From Chitinivibrionales bacterium (GTDB lineage: Bacteria; Fibrobacterota; Chitinivibrionia; Chitinivibrionales; WJKA01), in assembly GCA_038247415.1 (NCBI GenBank), contig JBBRUX010000052.1, positions 1 to 25,369 on the forward strand: a stretch of DNA of 25,369 bases, read 5' to 3'. A program made the position numbers and the translations under genes. The notes under the pieces were generated by a model. The model searched no databases. It was not told the DNA's origin and saw nothing but the letters and a program-made list of their open reading frames with translations. This document shows, piece after piece, positions 5,280-23,320 of the stretch (within the stretch, counting starts at the first letter, position 1; every line of letters starts with the position of its first letter).

Positions 5280-7082
5280 ATGGCAAAAAAACAAATCAAT
5301 GTCATGATTACAGCCTTCAGAGATGGATTCCAATCTGTCTATGGAGCACGAGTCTTTACTAGAGATTATATTCCAGCAATTGCAGCTGCACGTGATGCCG
5401 GAATTTCCTATTTCGAAGCGGGTGGAGGAGCGATGTTTCAATCCTCCTATTTTTACTGTAACGAAGATGCATTTGCGCACATGGATGAGTTCAGGAAAAT
5501 TGCAGGCCCGGACGCAAACCTGCAGACACTTGCACGTGGTGTTAATGTTGTATGCCTCGATTCACAACCGCGCGATATCATAAAGTTACACGCCGTACTT
5601 TTCAAAAAACATGGAATAACTACTATAAGGAACTTCGATGCGCTCAACGATGTTGACAATTTGATATACAGCGGACACTGTATCCATGATGCAGGGCTGA
5701 AACATCAGGTCGTAGTAACCATGATGGAATTGCCACCAGGATGCGAAGGTGCGCATACACCCGAGTTTTATTCCAAGACATTGCGTAGTATTCTCGATGC
5801 CGGAATTCCTTACGATTCAGTTTGTTTTAAAGACGCATCCGGGACATCGATCCCGTCAAAAGTGTACGAAACTATCAGTCAAGCACGTCGCATGGTTCCT
5901 CAAGGAACCAGTATCCATTTCCACACCCACGAGACAGCCGGAATTGGTGTGATCCAATACAAGGCCGCACTTGATGCTGGGGCAGATGCGATCGACTTGT
6001 CAATGGCGCCTGTTTCTGGCGGTACCTGCCAGACAGATGTAATGACAATGTGGCATGCTCTGCGGGGTACCGATTACGATCTCGGAATAAATGTGGAAAA
6101 GATGATGGAAGCCGAAGAAGTTTTTAAGGAATGCATGAAAAACTACCTTATTCCTCCTGAATCGCGCGCTGTTGAGCCTCTGATCCCGTTTTCTCCCATG
6201 CCCGGTGGGGCGTTGACTGCCAATACACAGATGCTTCGCGATAACGGAATAATGAATAAATATCCAGAAATTATAAAGGCAATGAGTGAGGTTGTCCGAC
6301 GTGGTGGCTTTGGGACATCGGTAACACCGGTTTCACAGTTTTACTTTCAGCAAGCTTACAACAATGTACTATTTGGTAACTGGAAAAAAATTGCAGAAGG
6401 ATATGGCAAGATGGTTCTGGGATATTTTGGGAAGACACCGGTCATGCCTGATCAGGAAATCAGATCGATAGCATCGCAGCAGCTCAATCTTCCGCCAACC
6501 TCCGAAAAAACAGTAGACATAGATGATCGGGATGCAAAAAAAGGCATTGGTTGGGCAAAGACAGCCCTCGCAAATGCTCACATAACCGACATTACAGACG
6601 AGAAAATATTTATTGTTGCAGCATGCAAAGAAAAGGGCATTACCTTTCTAAAAGGTGAAGCTAAGTCCGCAGTGCGTAAAGTTGAGACCAAGAATGATAC
6701 ACCGACCACACAATCATCACATAACAATCTTTCGGTAACCATTGACGGAAAACTGTTCACTGTGCAGATGCAGAATGATAGTGCCGTTGTCAACGGAGTC
6801 AAGCATTCGTACACAGTAACAGATGGAATTGTAAAGGCCGGAGAATCGTCAAATGCCGTAGCAGCCACAGAACGAATGATATCTTCACCCCTCCCGGGTA
6901 ATGTGGTACGGGTTCTTATTGCTGTTGAACAGCATGTACAAGAAGGTGATGTGTTATTTATTGTTGAAGCAATGAAAATGGAAACGGAAATTAAATCAAA
7001 ATATGCAGGTGTCCTCAAATCAATAGCTGTCAAGCAGGGCGATCAGGTGACAACAGGTCAAGAACTTGCAAAGATTATATAG
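5280..7082 (+). CDS. oadA: Oxaloacetate decarboxylase alpha subunit (carboxyltransferase + biotin carrier)
   Basis: FRDGFQS, CFKDASG, HTH, MPGG and VTPVSQ carboxyltransferase motifs. C-terminal biotinyl domain SPLPG..VEAMKMETEI. Flanked by oadG and oadB. Confidence 0.92.
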   Translation: MAKKQINVMITAFRDGFQSVYGARVFTRDYIPAIAAARDAGISYFEAGGGAMFQSSYFYCNEDAFAHMDEFRKIAGPDANLQTLARGVNVVCLDSQPRDIIKLHAVLFKKHGITTIRNFDALNDVDNLIYSGHCIHDAGLKHQVVVTMMELPPGCEGAHTPEFYSKTLRSILDAGIPYDSVCFKDASGTSIPSKVYETISQARRMVPQGTSIHFHTHETAGIGVIQYKAALDAGADAIDLSMAPVSGGTCQTDVMTMWHALRGTDYDLGINVEKMMEAEEVFKECMKNYLIPPESRAVEPLIPFSPMPGGALTANTQMLRDNGIMNKYPEIIKAMSEVVRRGGFGTSVTPVSQFYFQQAYNNVLFGNWKKIAEGYGKMVLGYFGKTPVMPDQEIRSIASQQLNLPPTSEKTVDIDDRDAKKGIGWAKTALANAHITDITDEKIFIVAACKEKGITFLKGEAKSAVRKVETKNDTPTTQSSHNNLSVTIDGKLFTVQMQNDSAVVNGVKHSYTVTDGIVKAGESSNAVAATERMISSPLPGNVVRVLIAVEQHVQEGDVLFIVEAMKMETEIKSKYAGVLKSIAVKQGDQVTTGQELAKII

Positions 7083-7094
7083 GAGAATCACATC

Positions 7095-8456
7095 ATGAGA
7101 TTGATAGCACTGTTTTTTATTATCTGCATTGGGGTAAGTGCGGTTGTGGCATCAGAGCATTCGTCCCCCATTGCGTCAACAGTTGCCATTGTTCCCGCAC
7201 TAGCTACTGGGGGCTCTGGGAATATCAATTCTCCACAACAGGAGAACGCGCGTGGTTTCTCTGATTCAATGCTTCAGCTTTGGAGGAGCACTGGTGTTGC
7301 AAATCTTGCATGGCAGAATGTTGTCATGATCATGGTAGGTCTGCTTTTAATTTTCCTCGCGATAGCAAAGGGTTTTGAGCCGCTTTTGCTTATCCCTATT
7401 GGCTTTGGAGGGATCTTGGCCAATATCCCTGTTGCAGAAATTGCGGCATTACCCATAACAACAGCAATTATGCAACAATCAGTGGGTCCAGCCTTGGTAA
7501 CCACAACGTTTGTTGGTGGCTTTCTGGGGCAAATTTATTCGTTTGGCATAGCATCCGGGCTTTTCCCGTTACTCATTTTTATTGGGGTTGGCGCCATGAT
7601 CGATTTTGGGCCACTCATTGCCAATCCGCGGACCGCGTTTCTTGGGGGTGCTGCACAGATCGGTATTTTTGGTACCGTTTTAGGGGCACTCGCATTATCC
7701 AAATATCTCCCGTTCATCAATTTTAGTCTTAAGGATGCTGCCTCAATTGGTATTATTGGCGGCGCCGATGGCCCAACCGCAATATTTCTTGCATCTCGTC
7801 TTTCTCCCGATTTACTCGGATCAATTGCTGTTGCTGCCTACTCCTATATGGCGCTGGTTCCTATCATTCAGCCTCCAATAATGCGAATGCTGACAACGCC
7901 CGCAGAACGGGGGATACAAATGAAACAGCTTCGCCATGTGTCAAAACGCGAAAAAATTGTTTTCCCGATCGCAGTTCTTCTGTTGGTTTCCTTGTTCATT
8001 CCCGATGCAGCACCCCTTATTGGCGCTTTGATGTTTGGAAATCTGGTAAGGGAATCGGGCGTTGTCGAAAGACTTTCAAAAACTGCTCAAAATGAGCTGA
8101 TAAACATTGTGACAATTCTTCTTGGGCTTGGAGTGGGCTCAAAATTAGCTGCCGACAAGTTTCTTCGCCCAGAAACACTCGGAATACTCCTGCTTGGCCT
8201 GATTGCATTTTCGATGGGGACTGCTTCTGGAGTTCTTCTGGCAAAACTCATGAACCTATTCTCTAAGGAAAAGATTAATCCGCTTATCGGAGCAGCTGGT
8301 GTTTCTGCTGTTCCAATGTCTGCGCGTGTGGTGAATAAGGTAGGACAAGAGACCAATCAGCATAATTTTCTGCTTATGCATGCGATGGGGCCTAATGTGG
8401 CAGGGGTTATTGGAAGTGCCGTTGCAGCTGGCGTACTATTAGCAATTTTAGGGTGA
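7095..8456 (+). CDS. oadB: Na+-translocating decarboxylase beta subunit (OadB)
   Basis: [49 protein letters not shown] and [13 protein letters not shown] hallmark motifs. Confidence 0.96.
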
Positions 8457-8500: not shown

Positions 8501-10828
8501 CTATTTGCATTCAATGAACCGGTCAATTATCCGGGACACTTCATTTTGATTGGCTAAATTATACTTGGCAAGCGATGAAGTGATTCCGATCTTAATCGTA
8601 ATTGATTCCGGTGGAAGCGATCGGAATATATCCTCATCTGTTTTGTCATCCCCCATTGCCATAATAAAATCGCTCTTTACATTTGCAACGAATTTGCTGG
8701 CGGCCATGCCTTTATCAAATCCGCTTCGTTTAACTTCAAGCACCATAGAACCCTCTAAAACCTGCAACTTATTTTCGTGAGAAACCATCGCTCGCACCTC
8801 CTCTTTTAATTCCTTGGCTTTAATCTGGCCAATTTCCTGCGGGGCATTTCTATAATGCCACGCTAAAGAGGAGAATTTTTCTTCGATAAAGGAGCCGTTG
8901 CATCGGTCGGTGTATCGCTGCAAAACTGCCAAAAAAGCAACTTTCCAGGATTGGTCAGAATCAAGCGTACATTCCCAATCCATATGTGGTGATTTCAAGA
9001 ATGCGCCATGTTCAGCTATTAAATAAATGTTATTGTCCGCAAACCATTCATTCAGAAAATTTTTATCGCGCCCGCTTATGATGACTACAGTATTTTTGGG
9101 GTTTTCGCTGAGCATTTTCAATTGCGTGATTGTTTTGGCTCCAGGTACGGCAAGCTCCGGAACTTTGGAAAAAGGAACGAGCGTGCCGTCATAATCAAGG
9201 AAAATGACTCTGCGCAATGCGTTTTGATATAGGGCAATGATTTCCGATTCAATCAAAGGCGAAATAACATTTACCTTTCTTACTTCCTGCTCTTTTTTAA
9301 TTAACTCCATATTGTCAATAATATCTTTTGCCCACGTAAAAACAGTATACGTCTTAATCCGCTTTTGCATTCGCGCGATCAGGATCGTTCTGCTTCGCTC
9401 CGGCATTATCAGGGCTTTATTGATAGCATCGGCAACTTCGTGTTTATCTGCAGGATTGATAAGAATTGTTTCGCTGAGCTCTGCTGCAGCGCCAGCCATC
9501 TCACTGAGAATAAGTACGCCTTTCTGGGTAACTTGACAGGCAACATATTCCTTTGCCACCAGATTCATTCCATCACGAAGGGGAGTGATAAGACCCACCA
9601 GGCTCAGATCGTAGAGTGCAACGAGTTCTGCAAAGGGAATTGATTTGTATTGATAAATTATAGGTCGCCACGCCATGGTGCTGAATTTACCATTAATGCG
9701 ACCAACCGCAGATTCTATTTCGCGCTTCATGTTTTGATATTGAAGAATTGAGTCGCGTGAAGGAATAACGATCATGTTGAAAACGATTTTTCCAAGCCAT
9801 TCAGGGTAGGTTTCAAGAAAGCATTCAAAGGCTTCAAGACGATGAAGCAAACCCTTGGAATAATCAAGACGGTCTATTGAGAAAATCAATTTCAGGTTTT
9901 TGAGTGTTCCAAGGATTTTTTTTCGCTCAATATCAACAGGCTTTGAATTAATAGCCGCACCATTAAATTTTTCGTAATCAATCCCGATTGGATAGGCATC
10001 GACTTTAACAATTCGATCGCCAACAGAAACTGAGTTCATGGTGATTTCATGCCCGAGAAGTCGCGATACTGTGCGCAGAAAATATTGACTGTAGTCATAG
10101 GTATGAAATCCAATAAGGTCGGAACCAAGAACTCCTTGCAAGATTGAATTGCGCCAGTGCCTTGGCATTGTGCGAAAATCTTCGAATCCTGGGAATGGGA
10201 TATGCAGAAAAAAGCTGACATTAGCATTGGGGTATTTGTTGCGAATCAGCTCTGGTACTAAAAAAAGCTGATAATCATGTATCCAGATAAAATCATCCGG
10301 TTGCATAACACTCAGAATTTTATCTGCAAAAAGCTTGTTTGCTGTCACATAATTTTCGAAATAGCTCTCATTGTGTACAGCCATTGATGGAAAGTGATGA
10401 AACAACGGCCAAATAAGGTCATTACAAAACCCCCCATAATACTTATCGTTAATAGCAGCAGGGATTTCCACCGGCACAAGCTGATATTTACTACTGCCAT
10501 CCAAAAGCAGCTCACTTGAAGGCTTTGTATTGGGAGAAGACATTTTTCCCGAAAAAAACTTCTCAACCAGCCGCCAAACAGGTCTGCGCGAAGGTGGTAC
10601 TTCTTTTGGAGCAACAAGATCGTCACCCTTGCCAATCCATACGATCTTTTGGTAAATCTCGGCCGGGCCTTCACCCCCTTTTTTTTCCGAAAGGGCAGAA
10701 ATTGCAGAAACCAACCCTCCAGAGTTCTGGATAATGATCTCTTGGCCATTATCGATGACGGTTTTGAAGGGCAGTCTATATGAAACTACTATAAGTCGCT
10801 TAAATCGACTTTGTGCTTTTGTTGGCAA
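8501..10828 (-). CDS. otsAB: Bifunctional trehalose-6-phosphate synthase/phosphatase (OtsA-OtsB fusion)
   Basis: GT20 motifs GGLVSA, YYGGFCNDLIWPLFH, WIHDYQL, FFLHIPFP, DRLDYSKG and RDGMNLVAKEY. HAD domain FLDYDGTL..ISGR..MGDDKTDED. TTG start preceded by AGGAGG. Confidence 0.96.
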   Translation of the reverse strand: MPTKAQSRFKRLIVVSYRLPFKTVIDNGQEIIIQNSGGLVSAISALSEKKGGEGPAEIYQKIVWIGKGDDLVAPKEVPPSRRPVWRLVEKFFSGKMSSPNTKPSSELLLDGSSKYQLVPVEIPAAINDKYYGGFCNDLIWPLFHHFPSMAVHNESYFENYVTANKLFADKILSVMQPDDFIWIHDYQLFLVPELIRNKYPNANVSFFLHIPFPGFEDFRTMPRHWRNSILQGVLGSDLIGFHTYDYSQYFLRTVSRLLGHEITMNSVSVGDRIVKVDAYPIGIDYEKFNGAAINSKPVDIERKKILGTLKNLKLIFSIDRLDYSKGLLHRLEAFECFLETYPEWLGKIVFNMIVIPSRDSILQYQNMKREIESAVGRINGKFSTMAWRPIIYQYKSIPFAELVALYDLSLVGLITPLRDGMNLVAKEYVACQVTQKGVLILSEMAGAAAELSETILINPADKHEVADAINKALIMPERSRTILIARMQKRIKTYTVFTWAKDIIDNMELIKKEQEVRKVNVISPLIESEIIALYQNALRRVIFLDYDGTLVPFSKVPELAVPGAKTITQLKMLSENPKNTVVIISGRDKNFLNEWFADNNIYLIAEHGAFLKSPHMDWECTLDSDQSWKVAFLAVLQRYTDRCNGSFIEEKFSSLAWHYRNAPQEIGQIKAKELKEEVRAMVSHENKLQVLEGSMVLEVKRSGFDKGMAASKFVANVKSDFIMAMGDDKTDEDIFRSLPPESITIKIGITSSLAKYNLANQNEVSRIIDRFIECK

Positions 10829-10841
10829 CGAAAACCTCCTA

Positions 10842-12626
10842 TCAGTAAAAAATGGGCAAGTCGATTTTCGCGGCTATCCGGTAAACCGCATTCATAATCC
10901 CCACATGGCTATAGGTCTGAGGAAAATTACCCCATTGTCCAAACTCACTATCGGCGTCTTCGCTGAATAGCCCGCAATGATTGGCACACGATAAAACCCG
11001 ATCAAGCATTGCACGGGCACAATCAACTCTGCCGACATTTGCCAATGCTTCTATGTACCAGAAAGAACATACAAGAAAAGTTGATTTCGGTTTGCCGAAG
11101 TCATCGTGGTTGACGTATCGGTAAAAAAGACCTTCGGGGCTCAATAATTTGGCTTCGAGTGCTGCAAGGTGCAACTTCGCCCTATCAGATGATGGATCAA
11201 GATAATGCATGTTTATAAGTTGCAGCGTGCTTGCGTCTAACTCATCGACCCCAATGGCTTGAGTGTATGCCCTAAGCGAAGGATTATAACACTCCTCAAT
11301 GCGCTCTTCACAACGGTTAACAAGCAAGAGAGCTTTTTCTGAAAGACCCTGGTCGGATAAGGTAACCGCAATTTTTTGCGCTGCCTTGCAGCCTGCCCAG
11401 TGAAAAAGGTATGTATAGCAATGTCTCTGGAGACGATTGCGGAACTCCCAAACTCCCGCATCGGGAATGTCCATTGATTCATCTATGCGATTAAGTAACC
11501 ACATAACCAGGTTGCTATGTTGCTGCGTGAGATCGAGGTTTAGGCGCTTATCGGTATAAAGAGGCAAAAGCGACGTCAAAAGTTGACCATATACATCGTG
11601 TTGTTTTTGCAGATATGCGCTATTGCCAACTCGAACAGGACTATTTCCTCGATACCCGGAAAGTGGCAACATCCTTTCTGTCAATACTTTCTCTCCGCTT
11701 ATTCCGTAAACCGGCTGAATTGACCGCTCTTCATTTATAACGATGTTCTGGATAAACTGGAAGTATTTTTCCAGCTCCTTAAAGTGCCCTAAATTATTAA
11801 AAGCGTTAAGAGTATAGTAGGAATCTCTTATCCAGCAATAGCGGTAATCCCAATTGCGTCCGGAGCCATCGTGCTCGGAGAGACTGGTGCTGCCCGAAGC
11901 GATAATGCTCCCGGTGTCCTCGTATTGGTGCAGTTTTAAAACCAGCGCAGACCGAATGACCTCATCCTGATAGAGCGTCGGGATCGAGGCTGATTTGATC
12001 CACTGCCGCCAATACAATTTTGTTTCTCGAAGGAAATTTTCGGCAGTGGATTCCAGCGGAGCTTCCAATGGTTCACCATATGTCAAAACCAGATAAATAG
12101 CCTGATTGAGAACAAATGATTTTGATTGACAGATGTAGTTAAGGGGAGCGTTCGTTGTCAATCGAACCTGATTATCCAAATGCAAGTACCGTATATGATT
12201 GCTGCCGGTGACGATTTCGGGGACTACCGTACCCCACGCTCCCCTCGGCGAGCAAACAACTTTCACTGTTGGTTCACCTTCAAGCGGTTCAATCTTGCGT
12301 ACCAGCATGAGCGGTTTGAAATATCTTCCAAAATGATAAAATCGAGGTGCAAAATCAGTAACTTTAATCGACCCCGAACCAGTTTTAAATTCGGTAATTA
12401 AAATGTTTGTATTTTTTAGATAATATTGCTCGGAAGTAAATTCTGCTGACCCTGGAGTTATTGAGAATTCACCACCTTGCACCGAATCAAGCAGTGATCC
12501 AAAAAGAAAACTGCTGTCAAACCGTGGCATGCAAAGCCACTTTACATTTGCCACAGTATCAATGTAAGCCATATAGGAGCAGTTGCCAATGACGCCCATA
12601 TCATACGTATGTCGTTTTTGCATCAT
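10842..12626 (-). CDS. Glycoside hydrolase family 15 (trehalase-like)
   Basis: IGNC..WLCMPRFDS, RSALVLKL, RNWDYRYCWIRDS, PDAGVWEFR, FLVCSFW and GLFSED..QWGNFPQTYSHVG motifs. Start is probably the ATG at 12626 or 12623; the ORF track extends it to a TTG at 12644. Confidence 0.92.
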   Translation of the reverse strand: MMQKRHTYDMGVIGNCSYMAYIDTVANVKWLCMPRFDSSFLFGSLLDSVQGGEFSITPGSAEFTSEQYYLKNTNILITEFKTGSGSIKVTDFAPRFYHFGRYFKPLMLVRKIEPLEGEPTVKVVCSPRGAWGTVVPEIVTGSNHIRYLHLDNQVRLTTNAPLNYICQSKSFVLNQAIYLVLTYGEPLEAPLESTAENFLRETKLYWRQWIKSASIPTLYQDEVIRSALVLKLHQYEDTGSIIASGSTSLSEHDGSGRNWDYRYCWIRDSYYTLNAFNNLGHFKELEKYFQFIQNIVINEERSIQPVYGISGEKVLTERMLPLSGYRGNSPVRVGNSAYLQKQHDVYGQLLTSLLPLYTDKRLNLDLTQQHSNLVMWLLNRIDESMDIPDAGVWEFRNRLQRHCYTYLFHWAGCKAAQKIAVTLSDQGLSEKALLLVNRCEERIEECYNPSLRAYTQAIGVDELDASTLQLINMHYLDPSSDRAKLHLAALEAKLLSPEGLFYRYVNHDDFGKPKSTFLVCSFWYIEALANVGRVDCARAMLDRVLSCANHCGLFSEDADSEFGQWGNFPQTYSHVGIMNAVYRIAAKIDLPIFY

Positions 12627-12674
12627 GTTCGGATTCCAGTTCAATAAATGTGAAGTTGCCTTATATGAGGTAGC

Positions 12675-13955
12675 TTATTGAAACAGTCTGTTTTGCAATA
12701 GGTAAACACCTGCACCCGCAAGATAGCCCGCTAAGGCAAGCGGTGTAATCCTCCGCACATACCACATGAAATCTATCTTGGCTACGCCCATGGCGGCAAC
12801 ACCGGCTGCCGATCCGATAATGAGCGCACTTCCCCCGGTTCCCGCGCAGTAAGAGAGGAATGTCCAGAAGTGATGATCTACAGGGAACTGCTCTAGACTA
12901 TATATTCCCATGGCTCCAGCAACAAGCGGCACATTATCCACAATTGCCGAAAGGAGCCCAATTGACAAATCGATGATAGTCACATTGCCGATGGTTTTAT
13001 CCAGCCAAAACGAAAGCGCTCCGAGTATACCAGTAGCCTCGAGTGCAGAGATGCTGACAAGAATACCAAGAAAGAAAAGCACGCTCGCCATATCGATCCT
13101 GGAGAGGGCGTGAGCTGCAGAAAATGAGCGCTTTTCCAAATCGTTTTTTTTTGCGTGAAGAATTTCGGTGAGTAACCAAAGCGACCCAAGCGCCAGCAAC
13201 ATTCCCATGAATGGAGGCAGATGTGTAATTGTTTTGAATACCGGAACAAAAAGAAGGGCAGCAATTCCAAAAAACAGTACCAGGATTTTATCACGTTGAG
13301 CTTTAGGATCTGATTGAGGTCTGCTATTTTGAATCCTGTTACTCAGTTTGCCGCGTATCATGAAAGATGCAATTGTCAAAGGCACAGCCGCACACACCAG
13401 GCTAGGGACGATAAGGTTTGCCATGATGTTTGTCGCTGTTATCCTTCCGTCAATCCAGAGCATGGTGGTCGTCACATCGCCTATCGGAGACCAGGCCCCA
13501 CCTGCGTTTGCGACGATTACCACAATGCCAATGAAAATCAGTCGTTCCTCTTTGTCGAGAGCAAATTTCGACAGCAACGATATCATCACGATGGTTGTGG
13601 TTAAGTTGTCAAGCACGGCGGACAGAAAAAATGTCAAAAGTCCGACAATCCAGAGCAATTTTCGTTTACTAGTGACGTTGATTCTGCTTGTGATGACATC
13701 AAAGCCACTATGCATGTCGATGAGTTCAACAATGGTCATTGCACCCATCAGGAAAAACAGGATGCCCGAAAAGTCGCCGATATGCTCAATAAGCTGGGAT
13801 GTGACATGGTGGTGGTCTGATGCAGACAGGATATAGATCGTCCAGCAAAAAACGCCAGTCAATAAGGCTATTGCTGCCTTATTGACTTTAATGCCATGTT
13901 CGAATGCAATGGCCGTATACCCAGCGAGAAAAATAATGATAATGAGTGTGCTCAT
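12675..13955 (-). CDS. nhaD: NhaD-type Na+(Li+)/H+ antiporter
   Basis: ILFFLMGAMTIVELID, FFLSAVLDNLTTTI, ANAGGAWSPIGDVTTTMLW, SAIVDNVPLV and CAGTGGSALIIGSAAGV motifs. Confidence 0.93.
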   Translation of the reverse strand: MSTLIIIIFLAGYTAIAFEHGIKVNKAAIALLTGVFCWTIYILSASDHHHVTSQLIEHIGDFSGILFFLMGAMTIVELIDMHSGFDVITSRINVTSKRKLLWIVGLLTFFLSAVLDNLTTTIVMISLLSKFALDKEERLIFIGIVVIVANAGGAWSPIGDVTTTMLWIDGRITATNIMANLIVPSLVCAAVPLTIASFMIRGKLSNRIQNSRPQSDPKAQRDKILVLFFGIAALLFVPVFKTITHLPPFMGMLLALGSLWLLTEILHAKKNDLEKRSFSAAHALSRIDMASVLFFLGILVSISALEATGILGALSFWLDKTIGNVTIIDLSIGLLSAIVDNVPLVAGAMGIYSLEQFPVDHHFWTFLSYCAGTGGSALIIGSAAGVAAMGVAKIDFMWYVRRITPLALAGYLAGAGVYLLQNRLFQ

Positions 13956-13974
13956 AAACCTGAATCATCCTAGG

Positions 13975-14331
13975 CTAAATAAAATTGAATCGTGCAGCGA
14001 GCAGCGCTGCCGCCCATATGAGAATGCTATACGCAATGACAATTACCGAGAATCGACGCCAATGCGCCATTGTTGCGACAGTGCCTTCGCTGGTTTCACC
14101 ATGATATATTTTAATGTCAATAAATCGAACAAGTATCAAACAGGCAACAAGCAGGACATACAGCGTATGTGCAATACGTGGTGATTTGTTGGAGACAATA
14201 AAGAAAGCTGAAATTATAATTGCTGCATGGCCTAAAACCATCCAGTATACACGAGTAAGCAATGCTCCAAAAGGGGTATATTCCTGATTCGTGGGCTTAA
14301 CAGAATCGGCAGGAACCTTTTTATCGGGCAT
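13975..14331 (-). CDS. Hypothetical small integral membrane protein (118 aa, about 3 TM), first gene of the nhaD operon
   Basis: The ATG at 14331 (MPDKKV..) follows GGAGG at normal spacing and is a better start than 14406. Three hydrophobic segments. Ends 19 nt before the nhaD start. Confidence 0.75.
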   Translation of the reverse strand: MPDKKVPADSVKPTNQEYTPFGALLTRVYWMVLGHAAIIISAFFIVSNKSPRIAHTLYVLLVACLILVRFIDIKIYHGETSEGTVATMAHWRRFSVIVIAYSILIWAAALLAARFNFI

Positions 14332-14364
14332 ACAACACCTCCGGCTAAATACATTAACCGAAAA

Positions 14365-14408
14365 GGCGGCCCGACCTTTCCAAAACCTGTGGCTCTTACA
14401 CCACACCC
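14365..14408 (-). ncRNA. Candidate nhaA-I (Li+-I) riboswitch aptamer
   Basis: Minus strand reads GGGTG-TGGTGTAAGAGCCAC-AGGTTTTGGAAA-GGTCGGGCCGCC. The 5' GGGUG, hairpin TGTGG/CCACA, RGGY and 3' GGUCGGGCCGCC match my recollection of the nhaA-I consensus. It sits between a promoter and the RBS of an operon encoding NhaD. Confidence 0.68.
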
Positions 14409-14414
14409 ATAATT

Positions 14415-14444
14415 AATATAGGTAAAACGAGAGGTGCTTATCAA
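14415..14444 (-). promoter_or_regulatory. Sigma70-type promoter of the nhaD/trehalose operon
   Basis: Minus strand TTGATA (14444-14439), 18-nt spacer, TATATT (14420-14415). This puts the TSS at about the first G of the candidate aptamer. Confidence 0.6.
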
Positions 14445-14753
14445 ATGTTTTGGTGGGGGCTTGTACCGTAACCACTTGTTGAGATGTTTTAAATGTAAAC
14501 ATGATAAAGATTTGCTCGTGATTGAATACTCAACCCAAGCAACAGCTAGTGCTGGTTTTATAGAAGTATCACTCTGAGTTGTTTCACGCAGCTAGCTCCT
14601 TATACAGACGCTTGTTTTCTGTAACTTTCTTCCACGTCTTCCTGCGATGTTCCCCTGTGAATTAGATACACAGTTGCTTATTGCGCATCTTATTTTATAA
14701 AAGTTAATTCCTACATAGATTCTACGGGAAATAATTACCATAACTTTTCCATC

Positions 14754-15224: not shown

Positions 15225-15323
15225 TCCGTAGCGCAAGCAATAGTCCTCCTTCGCGAAGCCTCTACGGAGGATCACCATCCTACGCCCAAAAACCAAAGGC
15301 TGGTTTTCGCGCGTAGGATGGTG
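15225..15323. repeat. REP-like palindrome cluster at the tmRNA 3' end
   Basis: TCCGTAG (15225)/CTACGGA (15262). TCCTCC (15244)/GGAGGA (15266) around CTTCGCGAAG. 13-bp perfect stem CACCATCCTACGC (15273)/GCGTAGGATGGTG (15311-15323) with inner AAAACCA/TGGTTTT. Confidence 0.7.
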
Positions 15324-15664
15324 GAGGTGAGGGGAGTTGAACCCCTGTCCGAGAAACATTCCACATAAGCTTCTCCATGCGCAGTCTGTTAATTAATCTC
15401 ATTACCGAATACGCCAGCAGACAGGCTTAAACGATAACCAGTGCCTAATCTCGTTTACGGGTCAGCACACCCCCATAAACCAGTACCCTAAGCTGCTCTT
15501 CTAGAAAAAGGTACCCTTTCCAGTCGAGTTGCCGCCTATTAGGCAGCCATTGCGTACGAAGGTTCGTTTGCAATTACATTGTATCGGATTTTTTACGAGG
15601 CCAACCGACGTCCTCGGCATGCTACCTATGATTCATCTTCCCCGTCGAAAACCAGTACACCCCC
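15319..15664 (-). ncRNA. ssrA: tmRNA (346 nt), tag peptide (A)ANEPSYAMAA
   Basis: 5' GGGGGTGTACTGGTTTTCGAC and 3' GGGGTTCAACTCCCCTCACCTCCACCA. Acceptor stem GGGGGTG/CACCTCC with G3-U. pk1 region GCATGCCGAGG..CCTCGTAAAA. Resume GCA at 15571 to TAA TAG at 15541-15536. Confidence 0.97.
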
Positions 15665-19379: not shown

Positions 19380-20246
19380 ATGCGGCAAAAACGTAAGATC
19401 CACGAGAGAATCAGCACACTTACGTCTTTGCCTTCGTTTCCTGTGGTAGCACATCGATTGCTTTCGCTGTGTTCCGATTTGTCTACCTGCGCAGCTTCCG
19501 ACGTAGCCCTATTGCTCAGTGGCGATCCTTCCCTTACGGTGCGTGTTTTGCGTTTGGCAAATAGCGCCTATTATGCTCCCGCATTTCCAATTACAACGCT
19601 TACGCAGGCTGTGGTGATAGTAGGCACACGTGTTATTAGCACTATGGTTCTTGCAATGTCGGTCTTTGATCTCTTCCCGAGCGCCAAGAATACTCAGGTT
19701 TTTGATCGAGATGCATTTTGGCGTCATTGTCTTGCATGTGGGGTTATTGGAAAATTATTGCTTTTAGAGAATTCAAAAAAACCTTCAATAGATCCCGAAA
19801 CAGCATTTTGCGCTGGGCTTTTGCACGATATCGGTACGATAGTGCTCGAACAGTATATGCATGAAGATTACATGCAAACGTGTACCTATGCGAAAGAGCA
19901 TGGGTACGCATTGTATGAAGCGGAACAAAAGGTTCTTGGGTTTACCCATTGCGATGTAGCCGCATGGCTCACTGAAACGTGGGATCTGCCTCAATCGCTC
20001 TGCGCGCCAGCCACATGGCATCACGATCCTTTACGTGATACGATATTTCCAGAAATTACGCGGATATGCCATTATGCCGATTGGGTGCATCGGGAGAGTA
20101 TCCATAAAATAAACCCAGATACCGTGTTGCCTCATGTAGATCCTACGTGTATATCAAGCCTTGGGGTATCAGAAGAGGCCCTTGAAAGAGTGCGCGCTGC
20201 ATGGCCTGGAATGGTGAATGAGCTTGCAAACGCCTACCTTACCTAA
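19380..20246 (+). CDS. HDOD domain signal-transduction protein
   Basis: LPSFPVVA, DPSLTVRVLRLANSAYY, FWRHCL, AFCAGLLHDIG and EQKVLGFTH..W.LP..WHHDP motifs. Confidence 0.93.
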   Translation: MRQKRKIHERISTLTSLPSFPVVAHRLLSLCSDLSTCAASDVALLLSGDPSLTVRVLRLANSAYYAPAFPITTLTQAVVIVGTRVISTMVLAMSVFDLFPSAKNTQVFDRDAFWRHCLACGVIGKLLLLENSKKPSIDPETAFCAGLLHDIGTIVLEQYMHEDYMQTCTYAKEHGYALYEAEQKVLGFTHCDVAAWLTETWDLPQSLCAPATWHHDPLRDTIFPEITRICHYADWVHRESIHKINPDTVLPHVDPTCISSLGVSEEALERVRAAWPGMVNELANAYLT

Positions 20247-20263: not shown

Positions 20264-20292
20264 AAAAAAAGGCCGGAGACTAGTCTCCGGCC
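20264..20292 (-). terminator. Intrinsic terminator of the acc/carboxyltransferase operon, possibly bidirectional
   Basis: Perfect palindrome GGCCGGAGACTAGTCTCCGGCC (20271-20292) followed on the minus strand by T7. Lies between convergent genes. Confidence 0.85.
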
Positions 20293-20322: not shown

Positions 20323-22338
20323 CTATACTTCTTCGATTGCAACAAGCGGCTGACCTTTTGATAAGCTTTCGCCGTCTTTTGCCAGAAACTTGATAATTTT
20401 GCAGTTGCAGGGAGCTTCAATCTCGTTAAAGAGTTTCATAGCTTCTACAATGCAAACTTTATCTCCCTTTTTAACGATAGCACCTTCTTGCGTAAGCTTT
20501 GGTTTGCCAGGACCACCAGTAGTATAAAAAGTGCCAACGAGCGGAGCATCGATAGTTTTAGAATAGGTGGGTGCAACGGGTGCCGAAGGCGTCGCAACTG
20601 GTGCAACCGGCGCTACTGTTGCTACAACAGCAGCAGATTCAACGGGCGCTGCTACAGGTGGCAAAGGAGCCATGACGCTTGCCATGCTTGTCTGTGTGCT
20701 GCTTCCACTTGCGGAAAGAGCAATAACAAAATCTCCTTTGCGGATAGAGATCTCATTAATTGCAATTCCAGAAGCACTTGCGAGCATCTGGCTAATACCT
20801 CTATAATCTTCGGCAGAGAGCAAACGAGACGCTGCGTCGATAGTAGTTTGGACGGGTACTGGCGCAGATGCGGGAGCCACCGCAGGTGTAGGTGTTGCTG
20901 CAGATGCGGGCTGATTTTTCTTCTGCTCGAGATCTGCAGGAATAGGAGGCCTATCGGCCGGAGCAAGCACACGCCACTGAAAAAAATCTGTTGCCGGTTG
21001 AGGATACATGATGAAAGAAATGATATCTTCTTCATGATTGATAAGCTTTGGATCTAACCCATCTGTTGCATTGGGCAACATGGGTTTGAAATCGTCGGCT
21101 GGACGATGCGTAATAGGCGTTTCGTCTCCAAGAATTTTCTTGACGAATGCAGGATCGACCGGCGCAGGTGAACGACCATACAATCCGCGCAGATAATCTT
21201 TAACTTCGTTAGGAACCATTTTGTAACGCTCACCCGCCAAAACATTCATAACTGCCTGGGTACCAACAATTTGACTTGTAGGAGTAACAAGCGGAGGGTA
21301 TCCAAGGTCTTTACGAACTGCGCTTACTTCATCGAGAGCCAAGGGAAGCTTATCGAGCGCGTTCTGATTAGAAAGCTGCGATTTGAAGTTTGAAATCATT
21401 CCGCCAGGTATCTGGTGAATGAGAATACCAGGATCGATAACAGGCTGAATTGAATGATCCTGTCGGCGTTTTGGTGCCAGTTCGGTAAAATATTTATTGA
21501 CACGTGCAAGTGCTTCCATGTCGAGATTGGGATGGTACTCGGTATCGGCAAAAATTGCAGCTACTGTTTCGACGGGTGGCTGCGACGATGTACCTGCCAT
21601 CGAGGATACCGCGCAGTCGACTGCACCAGCACCAGCGCGAACACCATCAACATAGGTTGAGGTTCCCATGCCACTTGACGCATGGCAATGAAGCTGAATA
21701 GGCACGTTCACAGCCTTGATAAGTGCGGTAACAAGACGTTCCGACTCGATGGGCGAAAGAATTCCGGCCATATCTTTGACGCAAATTGAATCGATGCCTA
21801 AAGCTGCTTGTTCACGAGCATATTCGACAAATTTATCGATTGTATGAACAGGGCTTGTTGTGTAGCAGAGTGTACCTTGAGCGTGTCCGCCATACTTTTT
21901 AACGGCCTTAATGGCTGCTTCAAGATTGCGGGTATCGTTAAGTGCATCAAAGATACGGAAAATATCCATACCATTTTCACAGGCTAACGCAACAAATCGG
22001 TCGACAACATCATCTGCGTAATGACGATAGCCAACGAGGTTCTGGCCTCGTAGGAGCATTTGCAGGGGAGTGTTTTTTGCTTTGGATTTGATAAGCCGAA
22101 GCCGTTCCCATGGATTCTCTCTGAGAAATCTCAGACAGGTATCAAAGGTTGCGCCGCCCCAGCATTCGAGAGAATAGTATCCAACTTTGTCAACAACATC
22201 GATAATACCCATAATGTCTTCGGTACGCATACGGGTAGCCCACAGTGATTGATGTGCATCGCGCAGCGTAGTATCGGTGATGCGCAACGGTATGGTATGA
22301 AGGCTTTCTTCGTGCTTTTCCTTAGGAGATTTGGCCAT
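20323..22338 (-). CDS. Pyruvate/oxaloacetate carboxyltransferase (PycB/OadA/transcarboxylase-5S type) fused to a full AccB-type biotin carboxyl carrier (671 aa)
   Basis: Start ATG at 22338 (MAKSPK) after AAAGGA. DTTLRDAHQSL, ECWGGATFD, CVKDMAG, LHCH, IPGGMISN and GYPPLVTPTSQIVG motifs. The last ~166 aa have an AccB-like N-terminal segment (INEISIRKGDFVIALS), a Pro/Ala linker and APLVGTFY..GPGKP..VKKGDKVCIVEAMKLFNEIEA. Confidence 0.92.
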   Translation of the reverse strand: MAKSPKEKHEESLHTIPLRITDTTLRDAHQSLWATRMRTEDIMGIIDVVDKVGYYSLECWGGATFDTCLRFLRENPWERLRLIKSKAKNTPLQMLLRGQNLVGYRHYADDVVDRFVALACENGMDIFRIFDALNDTRNLEAAIKAVKKYGGHAQGTLCYTTSPVHTIDKFVEYAREQAALGIDSICVKDMAGILSPIESERLVTALIKAVNVPIQLHCHASSGMGTSTYVDGVRAGAGAVDCAVSSMAGTSSQPPVETVAAIFADTEYHPNLDMEALARVNKYFTELAPKRRQDHSIQPVIDPGILIHQIPGGMISNFKSQLSNQNALDKLPLALDEVSAVRKDLGYPPLVTPTSQIVGTQAVMNVLAGERYKMVPNEVKDYLRGLYGRSPAPVDPAFVKKILGDETPITHRPADDFKPMLPNATDGLDPKLINHEEDIISFIMYPQPATDFFQWRVLAPADRPPIPADLEQKKNQPASAATPTPAVAPASAPVPVQTTIDAASRLLSAEDYRGISQMLASASGIAINEISIRKGDFVIALSASGSSTQTSMASVMAPLPPVAAPVESAAVVATVAPVAPVATPSAPVAPTYSKTIDAPLVGTFYTTGGPGKPKLTQEGAIVKKGDKVCIVEAMKLFNEIEAPCNCKIIKFLAKDGESLSKGQPLVAIEEV

Positions 22339-22366
22339 TGTCGGTCCTTTCGTCACAATCGGTTTC

Positions 22367-23320
22367 TTATTGTGTAAAAACGCCCATTTTAGCAAATTTT
22401 TCAAAACGTTTATCGAGAAGCTTTGCAGTGTCCAGTACCGTTAACTTTTTAAGGTTGCGTAGAATCGATTCCTTGACATTTGCAATTGTTTCAGCGTAGT
22501 TTTTATGAGCTCCGCCAAGTGGTTCAGGAATGATTTCATCAATGATACCAAGTTCCAAAAGCTCTGGAGCGGTGATCTTGAGTGCTTGGGCAGCAATAGG
22601 AGCGTTTGCTCCATCACGCCATAAAATTGCCGCACAACCTTCTGGAGAAATAACAGAATATACAGAATAGCGAAGCATACAAATACTATCACCAACACCA
22701 ATCCCCAGTGCTCCACCACTGCCGCCTTCTCCTGCAACAATACAAATAATAGGAACGGTGAGTCGTGCCATTTCGGTAAGGTTACGGGCTATCGCCTCTG
22801 CCTGCCCGCGTTCTTCTGCGTCAAGGCCAGGATAGGCGCCTTGAGTATCGATAAGAGAAATAACTGGCAGATTATATTTTTCGGCAATTTTCATCAGGCG
22901 CAAAGCTTTGCGATATCCTTCGGGCTTGGCTTGGCCAAAATTTCTCTCGGCATTTTCTTTTATGTTTTTGCCCTTATTGTGACCAATAATCATAACTTTC
23001 TGGTCGCCAATAGTTGCAAATCCTCCAATAAGAGCTGCATCATCACCAAACCGTCGATCTCCGTGGAGTTCAAAAAAATCGGTGCACAAGAGCGAAATGT
23101 AATCTTGAAGAATTGGGCGCTTTGGGCTACGGGCGATTTGTACAGTTTGCCAAGGGGTAAGCGATGAGTAGATACGTTCTTTGTGTTCGTCGCATCGCGC
23201 TTGAAGCTCAATAATTTGACCGCTGAAATCCCCTTTGTTTTCGGCCGAAAGCTTGCGAAGCTTTTCGATCATTTCTTCTATTTCTACAACGGGTTTTTCG
23301 AAGTCCAATCCGATTTCCAT
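22367..23320 (-). CDS. accA: Acetyl-CoA carboxylase carboxyltransferase alpha subunit
   Basis: LDFEKP, LTPWQTVQIAR, FFELHGDRRFGDD, PEGYRKALRLM, AEERGQAEAIARNL, GEGGSGGALG and YSVISPEGCAAILW motifs. Confidence 0.97.
   Translation of the reverse strand: MEIGLDFEKPVVEIEEMIEKLRKLSAENKGDFSGQIIELQARCDEHKERIYSSLTPWQTVQIARSPKRPILQDYISLLCTDFFELHGDRRFGDDAALIGGFATIGDQKVMIIGHNKGKNIKENAERNFGQAKPEGYRKALRLMKIAEKYNLPVISLIDTQGAYPGLDAEERGQAEAIARNLTEMARLTVPIICIVAGEGGSGGALGIGVGDSICMLRYSVYSVISPEGCAAILWRDGANAPIAAQALKITAPELLELGIIDEIIPEPLGGAHKNYAETIANVKESILRNLKKLTVLDTAKLLDKRFEKFAKMGVFTQ

Follow-up and report, generated by a model that had tools for sequence, protein, structure and literature searches.

An nhaA-I (Li+-I class) riboswitch ahead of nhaD and trehalose genes: predicted translational control and the question of its ligand

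The contig JBBRUX010000052.1, whose full 25,369 nucleotides (nt) we refer to as the window, carries on its minus strand a leader followed by genes for a small membrane protein, the antiporter NhaD, a glycoside hydrolase of family GH15 and a bifunctional trehalose-6-phosphate synthase/phosphatase (TPS/TPP). This locus raises the question of whether the leader is a riboswitch of the nhaA-I class, how it could act on the genes behind it, and which ion it would report to them. RNAs of this class have been validated as Li+-selective ON switches (White et al. 2022, Sci Rep, PMC9646797). Judged by its sequence, the window RNA is a genuine, canonical member of the nhaA-I, or Li+-I, class. We consider it quite probable that it stands at the 5' end of a four-gene transcript and exerts translational ON control by sequestering the Shine-Dalgarno (SD) sequence and the AUG of the first gene.

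The leader RNA and its predicted switch

A search of the whole window with Rfam 15 placed nhaA-I (RF03057) at 14408..14361 on the minus strand, covering positions 1-55 of the 55 in the model with 45.2 bits against a gathering score of 37 (E 3.9e-6). When a 251-nt slice (14250..14500) was searched at E<=10, nhaA-I was the sole RNA family matched; the models for nhaA-II (Li+-II) and DUF1646 (Na+-I) had no match in the slice at that limit and none at the gathering score across the window. The first-pass annotation had proposed an nhaA-I candidate from the letters alone, and the covariance models bear it out. The strongly conserved words of the Rfam alignment that it had read (GGGUG, a hairpin, CAGGU and GGUCGGGCCGCC) are likewise all present, within 14408..14365. 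These words are also invariant in our 27-sequence alignment, where the search pattern had imposed them.

The Rfam match, our own covariance model R1 (38.3 bits for the window; see below) and a fold of the aptamer alone agree on an element at 14361..14408. It opens with GGGUG (14408-14404) and continues with P1 (14404-14389, five base pairs (bp) and a 6-nt loop), the junction AGGUUUUG (14388-14381) and P2 (14380-14361, GAAAGGU, a CGGGCC loop and GCCUUUU), with GGUCGGGCCGCC forming the top of P2 plus its loop. Folded by itself, the aptamer gives the P1 and P2 hairpins joined by a short junction, at -13.6 kcal/mol. On the minus strand between 14700 and 14200, GGUCGGGCCGCC is followed by UUUUCGGUUAA, UGUAU and UUAGCCGGAGG, then seven nt, and then the AUG at 14331.

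To set this aptamer beside others, we matched an exact pattern of 21 conserved nhaA-I nucleotides to the GTDB species genomes, which gave at least 120 stretches, 80 of the 120 listed with 7-kb flanks. Neither the source of the window nor a close relative of it was among those listed. R1 was built from 26 of the listed loci plus the window, and the same 26 loci were among those later scored; its structure was given by hand with nine pairs, RNAalifold on the MAFFT alignment A1 having recovered only eight. The model split the listed matches into 48 loci at 30 bits or more and a remainder at 27.6 bits or less. On re-testing with Rfam, 16 of 18 high-scoring loci lay above the gathering score (L094 and L116 fell below), as did none of nine low-scoring loci. 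The other 72 of the 120 listed matches are chance sites in GC-rich, mostly actinobacterial genomes, so pattern searches for nhaA-I need a covariance-model filter. A hand-written structural filter on P1 and P2 was dropped because it lost most true aptamers, in which P2 is often bulged.

Upstream of the aptamer lies a promoter-like site (14415..14444, minus strand) made of TTGATA (14444-14439), an 18-nt spacer and TATATT (14420-14415), with 10 of 12 matches; TATATT ends six nt before the first G of the aptamer. The same site had been picked out in the first pass, and its position is now backed by a recurrent spacing. We scanned 60 nt upstream of GGGUG for -10-like hexamers (TAnnnT with at least 4 of 6 matches) in 49 nhaA-I aptamers, comprising the 48 listed public loci and the window. 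In 30 of them such a hexamer has its end 6-8 nt ahead of GGGUG; the remaining distances between 0 and 39 nt yield nine occurrences in total. A -10 box at this fixed spacing suggests that nhaA-I RNAs are typically transcribed from, or next to, their first conserved G. The riboswitches would thus usually begin at transcript +1, and for the window we predict a transcription start site at or next to 14408.

In the minimum free energy (MFE) fold of the leader through the start codon, P1 is retained and P2 is replaced by a long helix (14323..14375, minus strand). Positions 14375-14363, made up of GUCGGGC and CGCCUU and hence of the 5' strand, loop and 3' strand of P2, pair downstream. GUCGGGC, from the 5' strand and loop, pairs with GCCCGAU at 14329-14323, which is the G of the AUG together with codons 2 and 3 (the partner of GCCCGAU in P2 and its loop being GGUCGGGC), and CGCCUU pairs with GAGGUG at 14341-14336 in the SD region. 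The helix encloses an inner hairpin, CGGUUAA/UUAGCCG (14360-14342). Both the SD GGAGG (14342-14338) and the AUG (14331-14329) of the first gene are caught in this structure. The hairpin that the first-pass annotation had proposed to bury the SD therefore does form in the MFE fold, and it reaches further than had been claimed, into the G of the AUG and the next two codons.

This fold is strongly non-random, with an MFE of -34.2 kcal/mol (z = -3.6) that none of 200 shuffles equalled in stability. Enforcing P1 and P2 gives -26.6 kcal/mol, a cost of 7.6 kcal/mol, and raises the probability that the SD bases are unpaired from 0.00-0.08 in the free ensemble to 0.67-0.95. In these models the two states of the leader are mutually exclusive and the default is OFF, which supports in silico the translational ON-switch layout suggested earlier; the ON direction itself we infer by analogy with the class. 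Among 29 leaders folded alike, the window showed the largest change in its SD window, from 0.02 to 0.53, in a comparison that is noisy because the start codons are longest-open-reading-frame guesses and may be wrong, and that we used solely for ranking the window. GGAG, GAGG or AGGA stands upstream of 11 of the 18 window genes, which makes SD-dependent initiation plausible in the host.

Taken together, these folds suggest the following course of events. Without ligand, the nascent leader would refold into the long helix, in which the P2 strands and the CGGGCC loop pair with the GGAGG SD, the G of the AUG and the next two codons, and translation of the first gene would be blocked. An alkali cation bound to the aptamer would hold P1 and P2 in place and leave the SD and AUG single-stranded, so that translation could start. 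Expression of nhaD and the trehalose genes might then follow through translational coupling, loss of polarity, or both.

Several points weigh against this reading. P1 has five bp where the consensus has eight. The OFF helix comes from single-sequence folds and lacks covariation support, and many NhaA-linked leaders among the 29 show a small predicted SD change, so the model may not extend to the whole class. A gap of 7.6 kcal/mol is large for a monovalent ion at equilibrium in the folding model, and control would accordingly have to be kinetic, during transcription. Promoter-like sites occur in the scanned region at chance frequency (13 against 13.9 +/- 4.0 in shuffles), and a transcription start slightly downstream of the predicted one would truncate the aptamer. 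Finally, neither nhaD nor the GH15 gene has a good SD site, which makes the extent of co-regulation uncertain, and we found no operon terminator after the last gene. With these points counted, we still hold SD- and AUG-sequestering translational control by an nhaA-I RNA to be the reading that best fits the locus.

The genes behind the riboswitch

The four genes run in the same direction with gaps of 19, 30 and 13 nt, and Pfam and NCBIfam uphold the identities that had been assigned to them (membrane protein, nhaD, GH15 and TPS/TPP). The one correction concerns the first gene, which starts with ATG at 14331 and not at 14330. From the shared strand and the short gaps we infer that the four are co-transcribed.

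The second gene, nhaD (12675..13955, minus strand), encodes a Na+(Li+)/H+ antiporter of 426 amino acids (aa) and begins 409 nt past the aptamer core, on the same strand. It matched NF038006 with 162.3 bits (cut-off 80) and PF03600; its score of 393 bits for TIGR00775 lies below the cut-off of 577. Homologues with 63-82% identity carry the name NhaD, the best named relative (75% identity) coming from a Chitinivibrionales metagenome-assembled genome (MAG). Upstream of nhaD there is only a distant AGGA at -16, and translational coupling to the first gene is possible.

The third gene (10842..12644, minus strand) encodes a GH15 hydrolase of up to 600 aa with a trehalase-like N-terminal domain, matched by PF00723 (129.6 bits) and PF19291 (TREH_N, 49.2 bits). 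Its start may be TTG at 12644 or ATG at 12626 or 12623, and a sequence search of the PDB gave no match. Against the archaeal trehalase models TreH1 and TreH2 it scored 283.7 and 236.6 bits, far short of the equivalog cut-offs of 820 and 1000, so a trehalase activity can be no more than presumed for it. The fourth gene (8501..10828, minus strand) encodes the bifunctional TPS/TPP, 775 aa long (NF011071 904 bits with a cut-off of 634; PF00982 463 bits; PF02358 188 bits). It has a TTG start with AGGAGG six nt upstream and ends 44 nt from a convergent oadB gene.

The first gene (13975..14331, minus strand) encodes a protein of 118 aa with three predicted transmembrane (TM) segments, as judged from hydropathy and an AlphaFold2 model. 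It belongs to no Pfam or NCBIfam family, and a word-based homologue search returned a single relative, so that a profile search was needed. An exhaustive profile search then picked out, from 1.84 billion cluster representatives, 1027 at E<=1e-3, of which 635 also passed E<=1e-10; their length is almost always 105-150 aa. A conserved motif, R-[FY]-x-D-I-x(4)-G-x-T-x(2)-G-x-P-A-T-M-x-H-W-R-R, marks the family and occupies the loop that joins helices 2 and 3. A full-length alignment of five proteins, namely four riboswitch-linked copies and one from Lentisphaerae, leaves R27, W30, R69, D72, I73, G78, T80, A86, T87, H90 and W91 invariant.

Comparison with annotated proteins gave little more. Pfam searches on 82 members found no family common to more than one of them, and the sequence profile of the family matched no PDB entry. 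The AlphaFold2 model is a confidently predicted three-helix membrane bundle (helices 21-47, 51-74 and 88-114; mean predicted local distance difference test score, pLDDT, 89.6); Foldseek returned zero PDB matches for it at E<=1e-3, and in the ESM Atlas the protein met 'hypothetical protein' clusters only.

The position of the family is more telling. Relatives stand directly behind nhaA-I in three of the 48 other loci among the matches listed: in an Acidobacteria MAG (L041, 6440-6907, minus strand, followed by a Sel1-repeat protein), in a Planctomycetaceae MAG (L056, 804-1169, minus strand, behind an Rfam-positive nhaA-I) and in an Aminicenantes MAG (L070, 1527-1880, minus strand, followed by a Na+:solute symporter, PF00209). 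With the window included, the family directly follows an Rfam-positive nhaA-I RNA in four phylum-level lineages. The first open reading frames of two further loci (L012 and L014) were considered as relatives and ruled out by alignment and hidden Markov model (HMM). This repeated placement makes the family a candidate alkali-cation stress protein, in a sample that is small (three of 48), and we regard it as the most original point of this analysis.

Antiporters dominate the first genes of the remaining listed loci. NhaA of the PF06965 type follows the aptamer in 21 of 48 loci and NhaA of the PF07399 type in 12; Mrp follows in two (L021, L089), NhaD in one (L042, a Rhodoferax MAG), and nine, including L011 and L014 (described below), were left unassigned. 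In three GC-rich loci (L033, L035, L041) first genes were assigned by Pfam, tblastn and HMM. Among the matches listed, 32 nhaA-I loci have long flanks, and in none of them is the aptamer followed by a TPS/TPP or GH15 gene in the same direction. The TPS/TPP gene in L035 was rejected as a riboswitch-controlled gene, since it is convergent to its nhaA and not co-transcribed with it. By these comparisons the gene combination of the window appears unique within a limited sample of listed loci.

Some of these loci have arrangements of their own. A Kofleriaceae MAG (L082) has two nhaA-I aptamers, both over the Rfam gathering score, at 149-198 on the minus strand and 301-351 on the plus strand; they are divergent, about 100 nt apart on opposite strands, and do not correspond to the published tandem arrangement. 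In a Porticoccaceae MAG (L014) the aptamer (7001-7055, plus strand) is followed by a short open reading frame and then by a gene for an Rnf/Nqr membrane subunit (PF02508, 7422-8033, plus strand). In Phytopseudomonas argentinensis (L011) the aptamer (7001-7059, plus strand) precedes a resolvase (7176-7763, plus strand) and then an autotransporter lipase, and it looks as if a mobile element had inserted between the riboswitch and its transporter gene. In L070 the aptamer has a tRNA gene immediately upstream.

The rest of the window (44% G+C) has the look of an ordinary chromosome, with genes for CNNM/CorC, a thioredoxin-rhodanese protein, ZIP, ThiE, an HDOD protein, AccA/AccD and phosphoenolpyruvate carboxykinase (PEPCK). 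The best named relatives of AccA, at 65-69% identity, all come from Chitinivibrionales, Chitinispirillales or Fibrobacter, and the host is probably a member of the Fibrobacterota. Convergent to the operon lie an oadA-like gene and oadB, the latter for the beta subunit of a Na+-translocating decarboxylase.

Two alpha subunits of the biotin-carboxylase type, paralogous to each other (oadA or pyruvate carboxylase subunit B-like), are encoded at 5280-8456 on the plus strand and 20323-22404 on the minus strand, in a window that also holds the one oadB, AccA/AccD and a PEPCK fragment; this set points to Na+-coupled decarboxylase energy metabolism. At the gathering threshold, Rfam 15 gave two matches across the window, nhaA-I and the transfer-messenger RNA (tmRNA). 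The tmRNA gene (15319-15664, minus strand; 180.7 bits, with the tag peptide ANEPSYAMAA by ARAGORN) shares its strand with the riboswitch and precedes the riboswitch promoter by about 870 nt. At 20271-20292, in the gap that separates the HDOD gene (ending at 20246) from the carboxylase gene convergent to it (ending at 20323), stands a perfect palindrome of 11+11 nt, GGCCGGAGACT/AGTCTCCGGCC, which is probably a bidirectional terminator.

The ligand and alternative readings of the locus

Rare variants of the nhaA-I class, termed Na+-II, respond to Na+ and carry a C where U is the rule, at 'position 54' in a construct from Desulfobulbus propionicus; they are reported to have intrinsic terminators, to be confined to Deltaproteobacteria and to lie upstream of genes of unknown function (PMC9646797). 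We mapped 'position 54' by elimination, as the sole conserved U that is C in the D. propionicus construct. That construct reads AGC-CGGGCC-GCU with a 5' GGGGUC, against a consensus of GGU-CGGGCC-GCC and GGGUG (PMC9646797 supplement).

The window has GGU-CGGGCC-GCC and GGGUG, with a U immediately 5' of the CGGGCC loop. Neither the C at the specificity position nor the intrinsic-terminator platform of Na+-II is found here. The hairpin after the aptamer has only three G-C pairs, its 3' arm contains the SD, and the sequence that follows, UGUUGUAUG, includes the start codon. The U at the specificity position, the GGGUG and the SD-sequestering platform place the RNA with Li+-I and not with Na+-II by the published sequence criteria. 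The window aptamer is thus of the Li+ type as far as sequence can tell, and its ligand is presumed from that assignment.

The genes downstream invite another thought, namely that the physiological trigger is not Li+ but Na+, under salt, osmotic or alkaline stress, and that the operon is a salt-adaptation unit joining extrusion by NhaD to the synthesis and turnover of trehalose. We put this possibility somewhat short of an even chance. NhaD, a trehalose-6-phosphate synthase/phosphatase and a GH15 trehalase-like enzyme stand in one set, and the adjoining oadA-like and oadB genes belong to a Na+-pumping decarboxylase. Elsewhere, the homologue of the 118-aa protein in L070 is followed by a Na+:solute symporter, and a gene for an Rnf/Nqr subunit lies behind the nhaA-I of L014. 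The host also fits, since AccA and NhaD have their best named relatives in Chitinivibrionales, Chitinispirillales and Fibrobacter, and cultured Chitinivibrionia are haloalkaliphiles. NhaD antiporters, however, are generally described as carrying Li+ as well as Na+, so the gene context is compatible with Li+ too. Against Na+ as the trigger stands the aptamer itself, with a U rather than a C before the CGGGCC loop, with GGGUG and the G-C closing pair of P1 as in validated Li+-selective RNAs, and without a terminator platform.

The published experiments bear on both sides. Li+-I aptamers have a weak affinity for Na+, a C-to-U mutant of Na+-II responds to Li+, Na+ and NH4+, and the authors proposed Na+ sensing in the osmotic response for nhaA-I RNAs associated with otsA (PMC9646797). 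On the other side, a validated Li+-I reporter in E. coli did not respond to 50 mM Na+, and the host, judged by the best named relatives of AccA and NhaD, lies outside the Deltaproteobacteria, the sole group with reported Na+-II RNAs according to the same source (PMC9646797).

The first-pass annotation had held that the gene context bears on the natural ligand of the motif; the idea is reasonable and had already been published as a hypothesis, and in the form in which it was put our analysis does not support it. We offer more tentatively, and think it rather unlikely, a specific version in which a canonical 'Li+-I' aptamer serves as a low-affinity sensor of intracellular Na+ that switches on NhaD, the trehalose module and an unrecognised 3-TM stress component. 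If this were true, the published U/C position would not by itself tell the ligand of an nhaA-I RNA.

Control might also be mainly transcriptional, with the hairpin after the aptamer acting as an attenuator, or with untranslated nhaD exposing a terminator-like hairpin or Rho sites and so causing premature termination across the operon. A terminator scan does list the hairpin at 14364..14338, together with a perfect 12-bp stem with a U run inside nhaD (13887..13847), and terminator-type platforms occur in variant members of the class (PMC9646797). Yet the first hairpin has only three G-C pairs, its 3' arm is the SD and its tail, UGUUGUAUGC, holds the start codon, an arrangement typical of sequestration of the ribosome-binding site. 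The count of terminator-like sites in the scan is also at chance (8 against 6.5 +/- 2.5). The nhaD element (13847..13887, minus strand, at about codons 23-37) has a 7-nt loop, GGCGUUUUUU directly after the stem, and a stability of -21.2 kcal/mol (z -3.45). It lies, however, within a conserved coding stretch, where it encodes the peptide KVNKAAIALLTGVF, conserved among homologues. The hairpin may be no more than a side effect of the codons used there, or it may terminate transcription in a translation-dependent way. We judge predominantly transcriptional control to be improbable.

We think it very improbable that the RNA is a chance likeness or a decayed relic without regulatory function: the 72 of 120 listed pattern matches that fell below 30 bits in R1 show that the conserved words recur by chance, and P1 is short, but RF03057 is matched over its full length and above its gathering score, such GC-rich words would not be expected by chance at 44% G+C, the element is intergenic and on the correct strand, directly between a -10 box and an SD, with a cation/H+ antiporter operon behind it, the alternative fold is far from random, and the first-gene family also lies behind Rfam-positive nhaA-I RNAs in three other phyla.

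Relation to known cation-responsive riboswitches

The closest known system is the Li+-I class itself, with which the window RNA shares the full-length model match, the conserved nucleotides, the U before the CGGGCC loop and the two hairpins (PMC9646797). It also shares the place in the 5' leader of a cation/H+ antiporter operon, in a layout that fits the predicted ON switch acting on the ribosome-binding site; for most nhaA-I members the authors themselves only 'speculate' about such control (PMC9646797). As in most members, a -10 box lies 6-8 nt before GGGUG. Unlike a typical member, it is followed not by nhaA but by genes for a 3-TM protein, nhaD, GH15 and TPS/TPP in one putative operon, and its P1 has only five bp. 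Its host resembles Fibrobacterota, whereas the hosts reported for Li+-I are Alpha-, Beta-, Gamma- and Deltaproteobacteria (PMC9646797).

Na+-II resembles the window RNA in overall fold, in the CGGGCC loop, in a first gene of unknown function and in a gene context that suggests sodium biology. It differs in its AGC/GCU flanks and GGGGUC, where the window has GGU/GCC and GGGUG, and in pairing an intrinsic terminator with deltaproteobacterial hosts, where the window would sequester its SD. Na+-I RNAs (the DUF1646 motif; White et al. 2022, Nat Chem Biol, PMC9337991) have a similar two-hairpin consensus, are ON switches, and are occasionally associated with nhaD, oadG and osmoprotectant genes (PMC9337991). 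Lower P1 and the P2 loop distinguish them from nhaA-I (White et al. 2022), and the Rfam DUF1646 model, as said, does not match the 251-nt slice at E<=10.

Within the nhaA-I class, the nearest likeness is to the RNAs linked to trehalose-6-phosphate synthase/phosphatase or to nhaD (PMC9646797). The published table of 944 nhaA-I-associated genes holds 356 nhaA, 130 sodium/proton antiporter and 171 hypothetical entries, along with 16 otsA, six nhaD, five citrate transporter, four DUF1646 and three oadG (PMC9646797, Supplementary Table I). That table gives one gene per RNA. In the window the adjacent gene is the one for the 118-aa protein, and nhaD and the trehalose genes come after it in the putative operon, so the locus would probably fall under the 171 'hypothetical' of the 944 entries, part of which the 118-aa family probably explains.

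Searches of the available literature for primary work on the class later than the 2022 studies returned reviews only. The class itself, its action as an ON switch, its occasional association with nhaD and otsA and the hypothesis of Na+ or osmotic sensing have all been published before. New here are the union of nhaD and trehalose genes in one putative operon, the Fibrobacterota-like host and the link to the 118-aa family. The locus thus mainly confirms known biology. It is also a compact test case for the idea that 'Li+-I' aptamers serve as salt sensors as well, since here a canonical Li+-type aptamer stands before an antiporter and a complete trehalose module outside the Proteobacteria.

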